Assembly: GCA_964360675.1 (NCBI GenBank)
Contig: CAYHXT010000003.1
Span: forward strand, 1-36,328
DNA length: 36,328 bases
Source: an uncultured Methanosarcinales archaeon
Lineage (GTDB): Archaea > Nanobdellota > Nanobdellia > Woesearchaeales > GW2011-AR9
Direction: 5' to 3'
Shown here: positions 1,788 through 15,197 of the stretch, one piece after another
Layout: every line of letters starts with the position of its first letter
Numbering within the stretch: position 1 is the stretch's first letter
Made by a program: the position numbers and the translations under genes
The notes under the pieces: model-generated
Database searches by the model: none
What the model saw: only the letters and a program-made list of their open reading frames with translations
Told to the model about the DNA's origin: nothing

Positions 1788-2168
1788 TCATTTAACCAAA
1801 ACGCCGTTCAGAGCAGCTTCCTGTCCAGGCCGTGAAGTAATCCTGACTTTTCCCAGCTTTGTTTCCACGATAGCTCCCTTGGTGATAATGTTTCTTCTTA
1901 CCAGATGGGGGTTGGCAGGATTTCCGACTACATTAAGAATCCCAACTTTAGTGGCTTTTCCCTTATTATCACAAACGTTAACGTTGCTGGCAGTCAGAAG
2001 AGAATGTTTAGTCCGTCCGCCGCGTATTCTGGTAGTTTTTACTTTCCGTTCTTTCTCTAATTTAGTATTGACAGGAAAGCCGGCTAATTCGCGCAGCCTT
2101 TTAGTTCTGGTATAATGGTACCTGCCGCCGGACGGTTTCCGGTTGGATCTTCGTTGTGAACGTGCCAT
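1788..2168 (-). CDS. rps8e: 30S ribosomal protein S8e
   Basis: S8e motifs RKPSGGR, RIRGG, NPANPHLVRRNIITKGAIVET and RITSRPGQ; 126 aa. Confidence 0.97.
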   Translation of the reverse strand: MARSQRRSNRKPSGGRYHYTRTKRLRELAGFPVNTKLEKERKVKTTRIRGGRTKHSLLTASNVNVCDNKGKATKVGILNVVGNPANPHLVRRNIITKGAIVETKLGKVRITSRPGQEAALNGVLVK

Positions 2169-2220
2169 GGTAAGTTAGATTAAGGGTTGATTTTTAAATA
2201 TTTCTACTATTTACAGCAGA

Positions 2221-2547
2221 TTAAAACAAATCATCGTCAATCATATCGGAATCTGGAATGGGCTCCAAATCTAAATCAAGGGGGTCGTACATTTGCTTTT
2301 GCTGCGGTTCTCTTCCCCAAACCAGCGAGTAATAAATCGGCCTTAAAATATCCCGCGGTTCCGGATACAAGACGCGCACATTTCTCATTACGTATCTCAG
2401 AGGCATTTCCTCCTCTTCTACGAATGTTCCCAGCGCTGAACAGCGAATTCCCGTTTCGTCGTCCCAGATAGTTAAATATTCCGGCTCTTCCGGAACAAAT
2501 TTTACTTTTTCAGTGATAGATATTTTTTCAATAATGCGCACCATCAT
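2221..2547 (-). CDS. Hypothetical protein with acidic C-terminal tail, coupled to lonB
   Basis: ATGA overlap with the lonB stop; ends [13 protein letters not shown]. Confidence 0.65.
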
Positions 2548-4418
2548 TTTTTTCTATGGAATATTTTTTCTTTCAATTTCTTATTCCCATTCCAATCTAA
2601 AGCATATTCCATCACCTCTTCAATAGTCTCTACTGGGATAATTTTTACTTTTACTAATTTCTCTTCATCGATAACAATATCCTGAAGGTTTGATTTAGGA
2701 ACAATGACCGTTTTCATACCTGCATCGATAGCTGCTTCAACCTTGGAAGAAACGCCGCCGACCGGAAGAACTTCTCCGCGGACCGACAGCGAACCGGTCA
2801 TAGCCACGTCTTGTTTTATGGGGATTTCTTTCAATGCAGATATGATAGCTGTCGCCACGGCAATGGAAGCTGAATCTCCTTCCACTCCTTCATGGGTCTG
2901 AAGGAATTGCACGAAAATGTCTTTCGTTTCTTTAATGTCTTCTCCAAAATATTTTTGGATTATGGCAGAAACGTTCTTAATTGCTTCCTTAGCGATTTCG
3001 CCGAGTTTTCCAGTAGCAATAATCTCTGATTTCTTCCCGCCGGGAGTCACTTCCGCTTCTATCGGCAATAAAATACCGGAATAGGCAGAACCTCCGCCGA
3101 TAACTGCCAACCCATTGACTCTTCCGACACGCAAGCCAGTGGTAATGATAACTTCGTATTCTTTCTTGCGTTCAATATATTTATCAGCCATCTGCTGTTC
3201 TAAAGGCCGGGCCAGTATTTTTGCTTTCTTGACGTGCTCCTTAGTAGCTAACCCTGCTTCTTCTTCTTTAGCTAAGTCGCCGGCAGCCCGAACTAATCCG
3301 CCCAGGCCGCGCAAATGCAATGTAAGGCGCCCTTTATGATTGGCTCTCCTTCGCGCTTCTTCTATAATTGCTTTCAGCGCAGAAAGATCAAAATGGGGAA
3401 TTTTTCCTTCTTCTTTTTTAATTTCCTGAGCGACGAAACGCGCGATCTTAGCCCGGTTCTCTTTAGTATCGGGCATGGTTTCATTCATGTATACTTCATA
3501 CCCATATCCTCTGATTCTGGAACGCAGGGCCGGATGCATATTCTTGATAGTTTCAGGATTTCCTGCGGCGACCAAAATAAAATCGCAGGGCACCGGTTCG
3601 GTTCTTACCATGGCGCCGGCAGAGCGTTCAGACTGTCCGGTGATGGGAAATTTTTTTTCCTGCAAGGCAGAAAGCATTTCTTGCTGCGTTCTGGGATGAA
3701 GCGTGGCGATTTCGTCGACGAACAATACTCCCTTGTGCGCTTTATGGATCATTCCAGCTACGACACGCTGGTTTGCCGGAGTTCCTAATCCCCCCGATTG
3801 AAACGGATCGTGCAGTACGTCGCCTAGCAATGCTCCTGCGTGTGCGCCGGTAGCATCAAAGAATGGCTCTTGTTTTTTGTCAAAATTGTCTACGATAACT
3901 TTCGGGGCGATAACTTTAGATGTTTGGAACATTCTCGGCCCCATATTTACAGATATGGCAAATCCAGCAAGAAACATCATGCCGCCTAAGAAAAAAGCGG
4001 TAAACATCAAATCAGATTGATAATGGTAGCGGATCCACCAAGGCGCAATGAAAGTTATGATAGCGACGATGAACAGCAGAAAACTATTATTTTTCATAGA
4101 TTTATTAGAATCCAACTGATAACTTAATGCTTCTTCTCTTCCCTTTCCGGCAGGCAGGGTTTTGATGTAAGGATTATTTTCATCATTAGGGTTGGGGTAA
4201 GCGAGAATATCTTTCAAGTCAGATTTGGGAAGAAGTTCGGCTAAAGCCATGCCCAGCATGGATTTCCCGGTTCCTGGCTCGCCTATCAATAAGACGTGCC
4301 GGCGCTGCAGTGCAGCTTTTTTAATGATTTTAACTGCTTCTTCCTGGCCCAGAACTTGGTCTACTATTTTCCCGGGTACTTTTATGTTCTTAGTGGTGAT
4401 ATTTTTAGCTGATTCCAT
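2544..4418 (-). CDS. lonB: Archaeal membrane-anchored ATP-dependent Lon protease (LonB)
   Basis: Walker A GEPGTGKS, two TM helices inserted in the AAA domain, Walker B VLFVDEI, catalytic EGDSAS Ser and Lys in VSSKVEAA. Start placed at ATG 4418 (ORF track TTG at 4445). Confidence 0.96.
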
Positions 4419-7265: not shown

Positions 7266-7355
7266 GGGCTCGTGGTCTAGTGGCTATGATGCTGCCCTTA
7301 CAAGGCGGATGTCGCCGGTTCGAAATGATTGTTGACGAAAATCCGGCCGGGCCCA
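7266..7355 (+). tRNA. tRNA-Val(TAC) with a 17-nt T-loop intron (7325-7341, position 59/60)
   Basis: Acceptor GGGCTCG/CGGGCCC-A; anticodon arm CTGCC-CT-TAC-AA-GGCGG; T arm GCCGG-TTCGAA[intron]T-CCGGC with TTCG/CGAA helix and AAA/AAT bulges. Confidence 0.92.
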
Positions 7356-13808: not shown

Positions 13809-14270
13809 TCAGAATCCGGTTCCCCTGCTATAACTTACCAGCTGCTGAATGTAATTTGAAAGTTGGATTTGCTGCGGGATATGCCGCAGAAAGAAGTTTT
13901 TACCTAAATTGATGGAATAAGTTTTGAAGAGCCGGTCCAAAGGGTCAAGATGGGCCGTAGTGTTGTTGATATCAATGTAAAAGATAGTTTCTTTTCCTTT
14001 AGTTACCCTATTGCGGTAAAATAAATAGGGCTGATTTACTTTCCGCACTGCTAAACCAGTCCCAAATATTATAAGAAGCAATAATAAGATTAAAGAGCCG
14101 GTTTTTAGCACCGTTTCCTGTCCGGCATTGAGTTTCAAGAGAGACACATTAAGCAATACGCCGAGGTAAAATATAAAGGAAAGAACGAATAATGACGCTA
14201 CTTTAGGCACTAGCGCTCTGGATTTAGATTCATGCGCGGCATAAATGGGCGATTCTAAGGGAAGTTCCAT
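13809..14270 (-). CDS. Membrane protein, 2 TM plus a PH-like soluble domain
   Basis: Two hydrophobic segments, then YLFYRNRV...IDI...LDRLFKTYSI, a bacterial-PH-like pattern. Confidence 0.7.
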   Translation of the reverse strand: MELPLESPIYAAHESKSRALVPKVASLFVLSFIFYLGVLLNVSLLKLNAGQETVLKTGSLILLLLLIIFGTGLAVRKVNQPYLFYRNRVTKGKETIFYIDINNTTAHLDPLDRLFKTYSINLGKNFFLRHIPQQIQLSNYIQQLVSYSRGTGF

Positions 14271-14332
14271 AAGATAATGAAAATGATATTAATTTAAATG
14301 GTTTACGGTGGATTCCTCATAAAAAAAATAAA

Positions 14333-14514
14333 TGGGCCCACCCGGACTTTCGCTCCTCAAAAAGTGAGGGTTGATAAGGGCAGACTGCCCTTATTTTCGA
14401 ACCGGGGATCTCCTCGATACAGAAAATGCCAGCGTTTTAAACGAACACTTTGCATTTGCGTCAACGAGATGTCATCTGCGGCGCATTTCTGCGTAGCCGC
14501 TAGACCATGAGCCC
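14333..14514 (-). tRNA. tRNA-Val(GAC) with three introns (D-loop 19 nt, anticodon 37/38 41 nt, T-loop 59/60 49 nt)
   Basis: Removing 14494-14476, 14458-14418 and 14395-14347 gives a 73-nt cloverleaf: GGGCTCA-TG-GTCTAGCGGCTATGAC-A-TCTCG-TTGACGT-CGAGG-AGATC-CCCGG-TTCGAAT-CCGGG-TGGGCCC-A. Each junction fits BHB cleavage geometry. Confidence 0.9.
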
Positions 14515-14570
14515 ATTTTATAAGAAAGACTTATATTCTTTTATAAATCTTATTTATTTAATCTTTAAAA

Positions 14571-15197
14571 ATGGCAGATGCAGAAACCTTATTCTTTACC
14601 GGCCTGATAGAGCTGCAATACGGGAAGAACGTAGAAAAAGAATTAAAGACAATAGCAGAAAATGTTCCTTGGGCTCAAGGATGGCCCGAAAATATCATTT
14701 CGTTCTGGAATGCTGAATCATTCATGTGGAAGCATAAAATCTGCAAAGAAGCCAGAGATTTGATTGCTGACAAATTAGTTTTTCTGAACGGCGGAAATAA
14801 TTTAGATATCGGCTGCGGCGCGTATTCTTATCTGCCCTCGGTAGGTTTTGACATCTCGGAAAAAATGTTGTTATTGAATGATAATTGCCCGAATAAAATT
14901 CAGGGAGATTTAGAAAATGCATTGCCGTTTAGCAGCGGCAGTTTTGATTCAGTTACTGCTGTTTTTGTTCTGAATTACGTATCCGGCTATCATAAGCTGT
15001 TACAGGAGATCAAACGGATTTTGCATCCAAACGGCCATTTTATCATAGTTTTATCCGCCCACAGGATCAATAGCTGGCAGCGGCAGAAAGAGGTTGCCTC
15101 TTTCAACTCAAAAGAATGGATTGCCATTTTACAGAAAGCCAAGTTTGATGTTGATTTTCATGAGGAGCAGAACCTTTGTTTTTTTCGGTGCCAGTAG
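14571..15197 (+). CDS. Class I SAM-dependent methyltransferase (Methyltransf_11-like)
   Basis: LDIGCG, GFDISEKML, LPFSSGSFDSV and EIKRILHPNG. Confidence 0.9.
   Translation: MADAETLFFTGLIELQYGKNVEKELKTIAENVPWAQGWPENIISFWNAESFMWKHKICKEARDLIADKLVFLNGGNNLDIGCGAYSYLPSVGFDISEKMLLLNDNCPNKIQGDLENALPFSSGSFDSVTAVFVLNYVSGYHKLLQEIKRILHPNGHFIIVLSAHRINSWQRQKEVASFNSKEWIAILQKAKFDVDFHEEQNLCFFRCQ

Follow-up and report, generated by a model that had tools for sequence, protein, structure and literature searches.

The stretch of DNA analysed here (the window) comprises the 36,328 nucleotides (nt) at positions 1 to 36,328 of contig CAYHXT010000003.1, part of the assembly of an uncultured archaeon that GTDB places in the order Woesearchaeales. 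Positions 14333-14514 of its minus strand hold what we regard, with a probability of roughly 0.88, as a real, conserved and functional tRNA-Val(GAC) gene interrupted by three introns of the bulge-helix-bulge (BHB) type, one of which, at position 59/60 of the T-loop, contains a copy of a dispersed hairpin repeat. Multi-intron archaeal tRNA genes are a kind already known, and this gene is a further member. The parts of the gene and its flanks, all on the minus strand of the window, are as follows.

14333..14514, minus strand: tRNA-Val(GAC) gene, 182 nt, four exons and three introns, CCA not encoded
14495..14514, minus strand: exon 1 (precursor nt 1-20), with the acceptor 5' strand, positions 8-9, the D-stem 5' strand and most of the D-loop
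14476..14494, minus strand: intron 1, 19 nt, in the D-loop (precursor nt 21-39)
14459..14475, minus strand: exon 2, with the end of the D-loop, the D-stem 3' strand, position 26, the anticodon stem 5' strand and the loop to position 37 (anticodon GAC)
14418..14458, minus strand: intron 2, 41 nt, at the canonical position 37/38 (precursor nt 57-97)
14396..14417, minus strand: exon 3, with position 38, the anticodon stem 3' strand, the variable loop, the T-stem 5' strand and the T-loop to position 59
14347..14395, minus strand: intron 3, 49 nt, in the T-loop at 59/60 (precursor nt 120-168)
14369..14394, minus strand: hairpin-repeat core (palindrome plus CAACC), a dispersed repeat copy inside intron 3
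14355..14369, minus strand: second hairpin of intron 3, CCUCA/UGAGG with a 5-nt loop
14333..14346, minus strand: exon 4, with position 60, the T-stem 3' strand, the acceptor 3' strand and the discriminator A73
14539..14547, minus strand: TTTATAAAA, a putative TATA-box-like element found by eye 25-33 nt upstream of G1
14321..14332, minus strand: T-rich run TTTATTTTTTTT, directly after A73, a putative terminator found by eye

TTTATAAAA may be an archaeal promoter element, and TTTATTTTTTTT is presumably an archaeal terminator. At BHB sites, the splicing endonuclease EndA cleaves behind the second of the three bulge nucleotides. The passages of a 2014 review (PMC4090602) drawn on here are consistent with that position, and from them comes the BHB rule that we applied: a helix of 4 bp between 3-nt bulges, with the first two bases of the anticodon in the central helix at the canonical site. 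Intron 1 lies after the seventh of eight D-loop nucleotides, a 20/21-type position. Its H2 helix GCGG/CCGC is fully paired (4/4) between CTA and AGA bulges, and a 4-bp inner helix, CGCA/TGCG, is closed by GAAA. At intron 2 the outer helix is the 5-bp anticodon stem, three of four central pairs form (a U33.U mismatch interrupts them), and a 6-bp inner helix, AAAUGC/GCAUUU, flanks the mismatched central helix. Intron 3 is framed by the 5-bp T-stem as outer helix, with UUCG/CGAA paired 4/4, a 5' bulge AAA and a 3' bulge AGU; it lacks an inner helix and instead forms a three-way junction with two hairpins, which gives a relaxed BHB form. Every structure described in an earlier note on this DNA is present where the note placed it; its figure of 109 intron nucleotides among the 182 was likewise recomputed, as 19 + 41 + 49.

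Removal of all three introns by script leaves 73 nt, which ARAGORN calls as tRNA-Val(gac) with regular stems and A73. The spliced stems measure 7/4/5/5 bp, the 13:22 pair of the D-stem being U.U. When two of the three introns were removed, ARAGORN made a call only if the one remaining was the canonical or the D-loop intron. A home-made solver, which seeds on T-arm and acceptor pairing, enumerates BHB candidates and scores the resulting cloverleaf, returned the same three introns in its best solution with a cloverleaf score of 34/35. None of 300 dinucleotide shuffles of the precursor reached 34 (maximum 26), and the reversed, uncomplemented genome gave 6 seeds and 0 solutions, whereas the real genome gave 39 and 27, respectively. 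Folded without constraints, the 182 nt reach a minimum energy of −76.9 kcal/mol (shuffles −53.8 ± 4.4, z = −5.29, 0/200 as good); this fold contains the acceptor stem, all three arms with a BHB added to each, and, in the T-loop intron, a three-way junction. The identification of the gene as a tRNA-Val(GAC) with three BHB-type introns is supported by ARAGORN on the spliced 73 nt, by the solver and by the congeners described below; that intron 3 is branched is supported by the fold. The C box (RUGAUGA) and D box (CUGA) are the consensus motifs of box C/D guide RNAs, as in tRNA-Trp introns; by eye, neither occurs in the three introns.

In its unspliced form the gene is invisible to both standard searches, as the earlier note had anticipated. 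ARAGORN, run on the unspliced region and on the window, reports no tRNA at 14333-14514. The Rfam tRNA model gives nothing at the gathering score, and genome-wide the locus is not among its 17 matches at E up to 1. Over the 351 nt of 14250-14600, with the threshold relaxed to E up to 10, Rfam returned six matches (E 2.8-7.8), all at chance level and in unrelated families, and none of them to the tRNA model.

Natural alleles of the gene bear directly on the intron boundaries. A BLAST search with the 182 nt against 40 relatives recovered orthologues in the same genus, and ten of them are complete: nine were resolved by the solver, and G007 was read by hand after the solver had mis-solved it (its T-loop intron, about 86 nt, has 3/4 central-helix pairs in that reading). 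The relatives are not independent samples and their assemblies are incomplete. Intron lengths in the genome of the window (G000) and in these ten congeners are listed below.

G000 (the genome of the window): D-loop 19 nt; 37/38 41 nt; 59/60 49 nt
G012: D-loop 19 nt; 37/38 37 nt; 59/60 17 nt
G015: D-loop 41 nt; 37/38 42 nt; 59/60 50 nt
G011: D-loop 20 nt; 37/38 43 nt; 59/60 22 nt
G003: D-loop 21 nt; 37/38 41 nt; 59/60 76 nt
G008: D-loop 21 nt; 37/38 42 nt; 59/60 76 nt
G005: D-loop 41 nt; 37/38 42 nt; 59/60 75 nt
G007: D-loop 52 nt; 37/38 41 nt; 59/60 about 86 nt
G006: D-loop 21 nt; 37/38 36 nt; 59/60 none
G013: D-loop none; 37/38 39 nt; 59/60 19 nt
G004: D-loop 19 nt; 37/38 none; 59/60 none

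The D-loop intron (19-52 nt) is present in nine of the ten congeners and missing in G013; the 37/38 intron (36-43 nt) is likewise present in nine and missing in G004. Because relatives without a given intron exist, every exon junction of the gene is uninterrupted in at least one congener: exons 1 and 2 are contiguous DNA in G013, exons 2 and 3 in G004, and exons 3 and 4 in both G006 and G004. These contiguous junctions constitute the strongest evidence short of RNA that the three insertions are introns with the boundaries given here. The mature sequence is identical in G012, G011 and G013, and a compensatory acceptor-stem change distinguishes the six other solved congeners. In the D-loop intron, the inner helix has been swapped wholesale across lineages (CGCA/TGCG versus UCUCU/AGAGA) with the BHB retained.

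These comparisons also bear on the possibility that we are dealing with a pseudogene, a tRNA gene in decay in which insertions have built up and which is no longer expressed or spliced. That ARAGORN and Rfam see no tRNA here is what such a relic might look like; however, three congeners have exactly the same four exons, which form a near-perfect cloverleaf when joined, all three insertions sit exactly at BHB sites, no other Val(GAC) gene was found in the assembly, and 25 of the 27 tRNA genes called by the solver in this genome are interrupted in the same manner. We consider a pseudogene highly improbable.

The 59/60 site has changed repeatedly. The closest relative, G012, matches the first 120 nt of the gene at 95% identity and has an unrelated 17-nt intron at this site; G011 and G013 have other unrelated short introns, and these three share with the intron of the window nothing beyond the obligatory CGAAAG end. 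The introns of 75-76 nt in G003, G008 and G005 belong to a different family. Among the congeners, the palindromic module of intron 3 recurs at the Val(GAC) 59/60 site in G015 alone, which carries the acceptor stem of the other lineage. G015 and G005 in turn have the same 41-nt D-loop intron and different 59/60 introns. In both close pairs, G000/G012 and G015/G005, the other introns are common to the pair and the 59/60 introns differ wholly, which amounts to replacement of the entire intron, at least two times between close pairs, rather than to addition of a piece. Across the genus, the 59/60 site of Val(GAC) is occupied by four unrelated sequence classes, and the gene has from one to three introns.

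Two further observations concern this site. One groundwater metagenome run (X6) contains contigs of both versions of the gene: over 14352-14395, one version has the 49-nt intron 3 and in the other 10 different letters replace 42 nt. The short version matches the short intron of G012 and also has G012-like small deletions in intron 2. In G014, the orthologue (locus L008 on contig C23, from locus position 1447) consists of exons 1-3 and the start of the T-loop intron, and it was left out of the list above since it breaks off inside that intron; its last exon was not found within 330 nt or anywhere in the 87%-complete assembly. An assembly mis-join at the repeated intron may be just as likely here as a split gene.

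The 49 nt of intron 3 are built on a defined module. Immediately after the 5' bulge, and one nucleotide beyond the predicted cut, comes a 9-bp palindromic hairpin, ATAAGGGCAG-T-CTGCCCTTAT, a perfect palindrome of 21 nt with a 3-nt loop; CAAC, a 5-bp hairpin and AG follow. Palindrome, CAACC, second hairpin and CGAAAG end recur together in other tRNA genes, the second hairpin appearing elsewhere in equivalent forms (CCUC/GAGG to CCCC/GGGG). A search of other tRNA introns for the palindrome found the module in T-loop introns of seven tRNA types in other genomes, namely Val(TAC), Tyr(GTA), Ser(CGA), Ser(TGA), Leu(TAG), Gly(UCC) and Glu(UUC), and once in a 37/38 intron. Thirteen stretches of T-arm plus module from Val, Tyr, Ser, Leu, Gly and Glu genes, each including 5 nt of T-stem on either side, align with a mean column identity of 78%. 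When the T-stem, central helix and two hairpins are laid over these 13 copies, 95.8% of cells pair, compared with 33-56% for slid partners; 8 of 23 pairs change on both sides, which 0/500 shuffles match. The structure was derived from the same sequences on which it was tested. Within the palindrome stem, compensatory changes turn C-G into G-C in 3 of the 13 copies and A-U into C-G in one.

The earlier note had interpreted the palindrome as a second insertion into an older intron. Under this nested arrangement, the palindrome would have entered a simpler 59/60 intron later and would perhaps be removed in a separate first splicing step. The palindrome plus CAACC unit does occur outside introns, a T-loop copy in G210 has the palindrome without the second hairpin, and two alternative BHB candidates inside intron 3 score 10/12. 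Both candidates, however, need an A-run/T-run pairing with the loop of this intron's own second hairpin, a loop absent from the other 12 aligned copies, and neither bounds the palindrome alone with a real outer helix; no convincing BHB of that kind was found in intron 3. Moreover, in all 13 aligned copies a mere 1-2 nt separate the 5' splice site from the start of the palindrome, a constancy that random insertion would not lead one to expect. The module recurs whole, and the short introns of G012, G011 and G013 are, beyond their shared end, not the same intron minus its palindrome; no such allele was seen. The nested arrangement is therefore very unlikely in our estimation, and intron 3 is better read as one copy of a two-hairpin module that appears to be spreading among tRNA genes than as a home-grown intron with a later insert. 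The palindrome nevertheless does seem to travel separately in another sense, as a dispersed repeat that is found outside introns as well.

The extent of this dispersal was assessed in sampled genomes of the order and of the family. Of 151 genomes sampled from the order, six have the exact 26-mer (palindrome plus CAACC), and they belong to five families, none of them that of the window; a backwards control gave 0 matches. One of the six (G156) is unpublished, and without it the count is 5 of 150. A degenerate motif, TAAGGG-N7-CCCTTAY-CAACC with at most one mismatch, is present in 25 of 81 sampled genomes of the family (control, 1 match). Copies per genome range from 0 to about 22, some in tandem arrays with a period of 65-89 nt. 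In the genome of the window the palindrome is not a multi-copy repeat: a search that allowed up to 4 mismatches found one copy, and another member of the family, diverged and with a different stem, was recovered through the degenerate motif alone.

With an unpublished locus excluded, 51 distinct copies were classified. Eleven are T-loop introns. Nineteen adjoin a tRNA gene resolved by the solver, and at these the flank on the side away from CAACC duplicates part of that gene. In 18 of the 19, the hairpin has the opposite orientation and the 3' part of the gene is duplicated, with junctions in the T-loop (7), the 3' strand of the T-stem (4), the variable region (6) or an intron (1); in the remaining one, it has the same orientation, the 5' part is duplicated and the junction is in the D-loop. 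The other 21, among them L033, the copy in a 37/38 intron, have no resolved tRNA gene nearby or no such duplication detected, and at several of them tRNA-derived repeats can be made out by eye. An exact 12-mer repeat test was positive for 26 of 51 copies (one unpublished locus included). From tRNA gene to duplicated part, the distance is mostly about 60-130 nt (spacings 14-144 nt, with one of 397 nt). No gene lies inside these inserts, and the genes flanking the repeat loci are ordinary housekeeping genes. A scan of 24 of the 67 open reading frames (ORFs) of at least 100 amino acids (aa) at 20 loci for integrases or transposases found a Phage_integrase-family ORF within 1.5 kb at 1 of the 20. 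A BHB scan around non-intron copies with free boundaries gave a best score of at least 10 in 31 and 32 of 38 on the two strands; it is uninformative because the strands behave alike and the boundaries are inconsistent.

Several individual loci can be noted here. At L072 (contig C16 of G220), the hairpin at about 1501 lies inverted inside the 37/38 intron of what is, by eye, a tRNA-Gly(UCC)-like gene, and the Phage_integrase-family ORF (1892-3025, plus strand) is about 390 nt away, the sole such neighbour in the 20 loci. Tandem arrays of the hairpin are present at L083 (G206, C18:1-420), L094 (G190, C75) and L093 (G215, C23). Each unit of L083 carries the 3' end and trailer of an adjacent tRNA-Leu(GAG), as if the site had been targeted repeatedly; the L094 array has no tRNA-derived part.

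A rearranged gene end also exists in the genome of the window itself. At C14:1966-2215 (plus strand), an intron-less tRNA-Leu(GAG) gene and its trailer are followed by an inverted hairpin and then by a partial second copy, which spans the variable loop to the 3' end of the gene. This displaced 3' part has a T-loop intron of 70 nt, and in G015, which has the same arrangement, one of 30 nt. In G004, Leu(GAG) is a single gene with a 76-nt T-loop intron, and in G010 it is intron-less with no hairpin. On comparison of these loci, the hairpin thus marks the junction where one version of a gene end displaced another that differed in its introns.

From such loci, we tentatively propose, at somewhat less than even odds, that the T-loop intron is the footprint of a small gene-less element (the hairpin, CAACC and often a second hairpin) that undergoes recombination in the D, anticodon, variable and T loops of tRNA genes and leaves either introns or partial duplications. 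According to orientation and outcome, the result would be either a BHB intron or a tandem partial duplication in which one end of a tRNA gene is replaced by another. Turnover of 59/60 introns is in any case fast in closely related genomes, and the swapping of tRNA gene segments at the DNA level is its most likely cause. Recurrence of the module and its rapid replacement are seen directly in the alignments; the route by which DNA is exchanged is the conjectural part. An att-type direct repeat accompanies 19 of the 51 copies, all of them non-intronic, and is seen at the Leu(GAG) locus of this genome; around intron 3 there is no direct repeat of a tRNA segment, that is, no duplicated exon segment.

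Alternatively, the hairpin module may be kept for a job at the RNA level, as a surrogate inner helix for EndA, a protein-binding site or a means of stabilizing a circular intron, which would be compatible with the gene being a spliced three-intron tRNA gene. The stem is preserved by compensatory changes, the hairpin always abuts the 5' bulge, and the 26-mer is identical in genomes of different families. Such conservation, however, is expected equally of a DNA element recognised as a hairpin. In addition, of the 16 T-loop introns that the solver called in this genome, all but one are without the module and must be spliced nonetheless; relatives have unrelated introns of 17-22 nt, or none, at 59/60; and of the 51 copies, 11 are T-loop introns, 19 lie beside a tRNA gene with its duplication, and most of the others are non-intronic too. 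An RNA-level role therefore seems unlikely, if less so than the nested arrangement.

The interruption of Val(GAC) by three introns is part of a genome-wide pattern and not exceptional. The assembly, 88% complete, comprises 77 contigs that total 927,741 bases, for a genome of roughly 1 Mb. PolB relatives are metagenome-assembled genomes filed as Nanoarchaeota or Candidatus Woesearchaeota, several from groundwater, and the DNA runs that hold the locus are groundwater metagenomes. In the assembly, 12 tRNA genes are found by ARAGORN when introns are permitted, 10 by Rfam above cut-off, and 27 by the solver. In these 27, the solver called 45 introns: 25 of the genes are interrupted, 14 of them by two introns and 3 by three, and by position 37/38 accounts for 18 introns, 59/60 for 16 and the D-loop for 9. 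These counts are provisional, and some anticodon calls differ from those of ARAGORN. The earlier note had called triple-intron tRNAs rare and described mainly from Thermoproteales; the passages of PMC4090602 cited here agree that multi-intron tRNAs are described mainly from Crenarchaeota/Thermoproteales, but in this genome they are not rare.

Other genes of this genome follow the same plan. The tRNA-Arg(GCG) gene (C38:2899-3043, plus strand) is also interrupted three times, by 18 nt in the D-loop, 15 nt at 37/38 and 38 nt at 59/60, the positions used in Val(GAC). Within the window, tRNA-Val(TAC) at 7266-7355 (plus strand, 90 nt) has a single 17-nt intron at 59/60; unspliced, it is missed by ARAGORN and Rfam, and with the intron removed, ARAGORN calls Val(tac). 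A separate family of T-loop introns of 71-76 nt that start with GCCAGCAATCTAGGCGAG is 82-85% identical across Ile(GAT), Ala(GGC) and Ser(GCT) and 66-70% identical in Pro(GGG); it is the family that occupies the 59/60 site of Val(GAC) in G003, G008 and G005. Its location in the genome of the window is as follows.

C2:1768-1930, C24:4099-4267, C30:1880-2033 and C49:4922-5082: the four tRNA genes with introns of the GCCAGCAATCTAGGCGAG family

The enzymes expected to process these transcripts were sought in the genus. All 15 other members of the genus encode an alpha4-like EndA. That of G004 has 205 aa (L046:1171-1788, plus strand) and matches the homotetrameric EndA of M. jannaschii best in the PDB (1a79, E = 1.4e-35, full length), with no visible insert in the alignment and an additional lysine-rich N-terminal tail. 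The RNA ligase RtcB is present in 14 of 15 congeners. A Pfam PF01974 search of the window's own assembly gave no match, because the gene runs off contig C48: its first 43 residues are encoded at the contig end (C48:6529-6659), the start lying 130 nt before it. The genus presents a single alpha4-like EndA in genomes that abound in non-canonical and relaxed BHB introns. As proposed, the 182-nt transcript would fold so that each intron is presented at a BHB site, EndA would cut at six positions, RtcB would join the four exons into the 73-nt tRNA, and CCA would be added after joining. Splicing, like the order of the cuts, is predicted from the anatomy of the gene, its conservation and the enzymes of the genus.

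A number of points weigh against the conclusion that the locus is a functional three-intron gene. The BHB motifs deviate from the canonical form at each site, with a weak outer helix of 2 bp in the D-loop, a central mismatch at 37/38 and no inner helix at 59/60, and alpha4 enzymes, to which the EndA of the genus is similar, are strict for the canonical BHB according to the passages cited from PMC4090602. The EndA of this organism is truncated by the contig end, and RtcB was not found in its 88%-complete assembly. Both the solver and its cloverleaf score are home-made and tuned to BHB geometry, and the solution for tRNA-His conflicts with an intron-less call by ARAGORN. Finally, the listed sequencing runs that hold the locus are all DNA, none RNA.

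The gene resembles the multi-intron tRNAs of Thermoproteales, as the cited passages of PMC4090602 describe them, in having three short protein-spliced introns at BHB or relaxed hBH/HBh' sites and in being missed by ordinary tRNA finders; the same passages give, after Sugahara et al. 2007 and 2008, introns at 25/26, 37/38 and 56/57 in tRNA-Pro(UGG) of Pyrobaculum islandicum, and 20/21, 37/38 and 59/60 are all on their list of known archaeal intron positions. Unlike that system, the host here belongs to DPANN and has an alpha4-like EndA, not an alpha2beta2 enzyme, and a dispersed hairpin repeat provides the basis of the three-way junction in the T-loop intron. In the part of PMC5829648 consulted, DPANN alpha4 enzymes are associated with disrupted tRNA genes, and broad specificity is tied to an 'L3' insert; the EndA alignment of the genus has overall no visible insert. 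Incomplete DPANN tRNA sets are also taken there to point to unidentified disrupted genes, an expectation that this genome fits, with 12 (ARAGORN) or 10 (Rfam) genes against 27 from a BHB-aware search.

Transposed tRNA intron families of Thermoproteales consist of similar introns (above about 70%) in distinct tRNA genes (PMC4090602, in the passages cited), and the palindrome module is comparable in occurring in at least seven tRNA types across relatives, as is, within this genome, the GCCAGCAATCTAGGCGAG family at 82-85% identity in three tRNA types. In contrast to the families reviewed there, the core of the palindrome module is also found outside introns, next to tRNA genes and duplicated segments. 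For tRNA-Thr(GGU) of Caldiarchaeum subterraneum, PMC3293823 proposes intron gain by integration of a mobile element, a model that the small-element proposal above follows in outline. As in that case, a tRNA fragment and a full gene that differ in intron content form a direct repeat around an insert at the Leu(GAG) locus of this genome; the Caldiarchaeum insert is 1.8 kb long with a recombinase gene, whereas the inserts here are gene-less and tens of bases long. A full-text literature search, covering main texts, found no description of a hairpin repeat in DPANN tRNA introns.

Taken together, the locus is a well-documented three-intron tRNA gene from DPANN, in which natural intron-less alleles confirm each junction. 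Of the tRNA set of this genome, considerably less than half is recovered by ARAGORN or by the tRNA model of Rfam, and the finding prompts one to ask how relaxed motifs are handled by an alpha4-like EndA. The route by which tRNA introns of archaea arrive was described as unknown, including the mechanism of their transposition, in the cited passages of the 2014 review (PMC4090602), and as still open in a 2026 Asgard preprint (10.64898/2026.10.13.758758), where copying, mobile elements and reverse transcription were tested and no general arrival route emerged. The present lineage provides filled and empty sites at which intron arrival can be tested, and one of its 59/60 classes has at its core a hairpin repeat which, at other loci, marks tRNA gene ends that have been rearranged; this makes the T-loop intron informative on intron turnover. 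If the proposal of a small hairpin element is true, it would offer a concrete and traceable route at the DNA level for the gain, swap and loss of tRNA introns.

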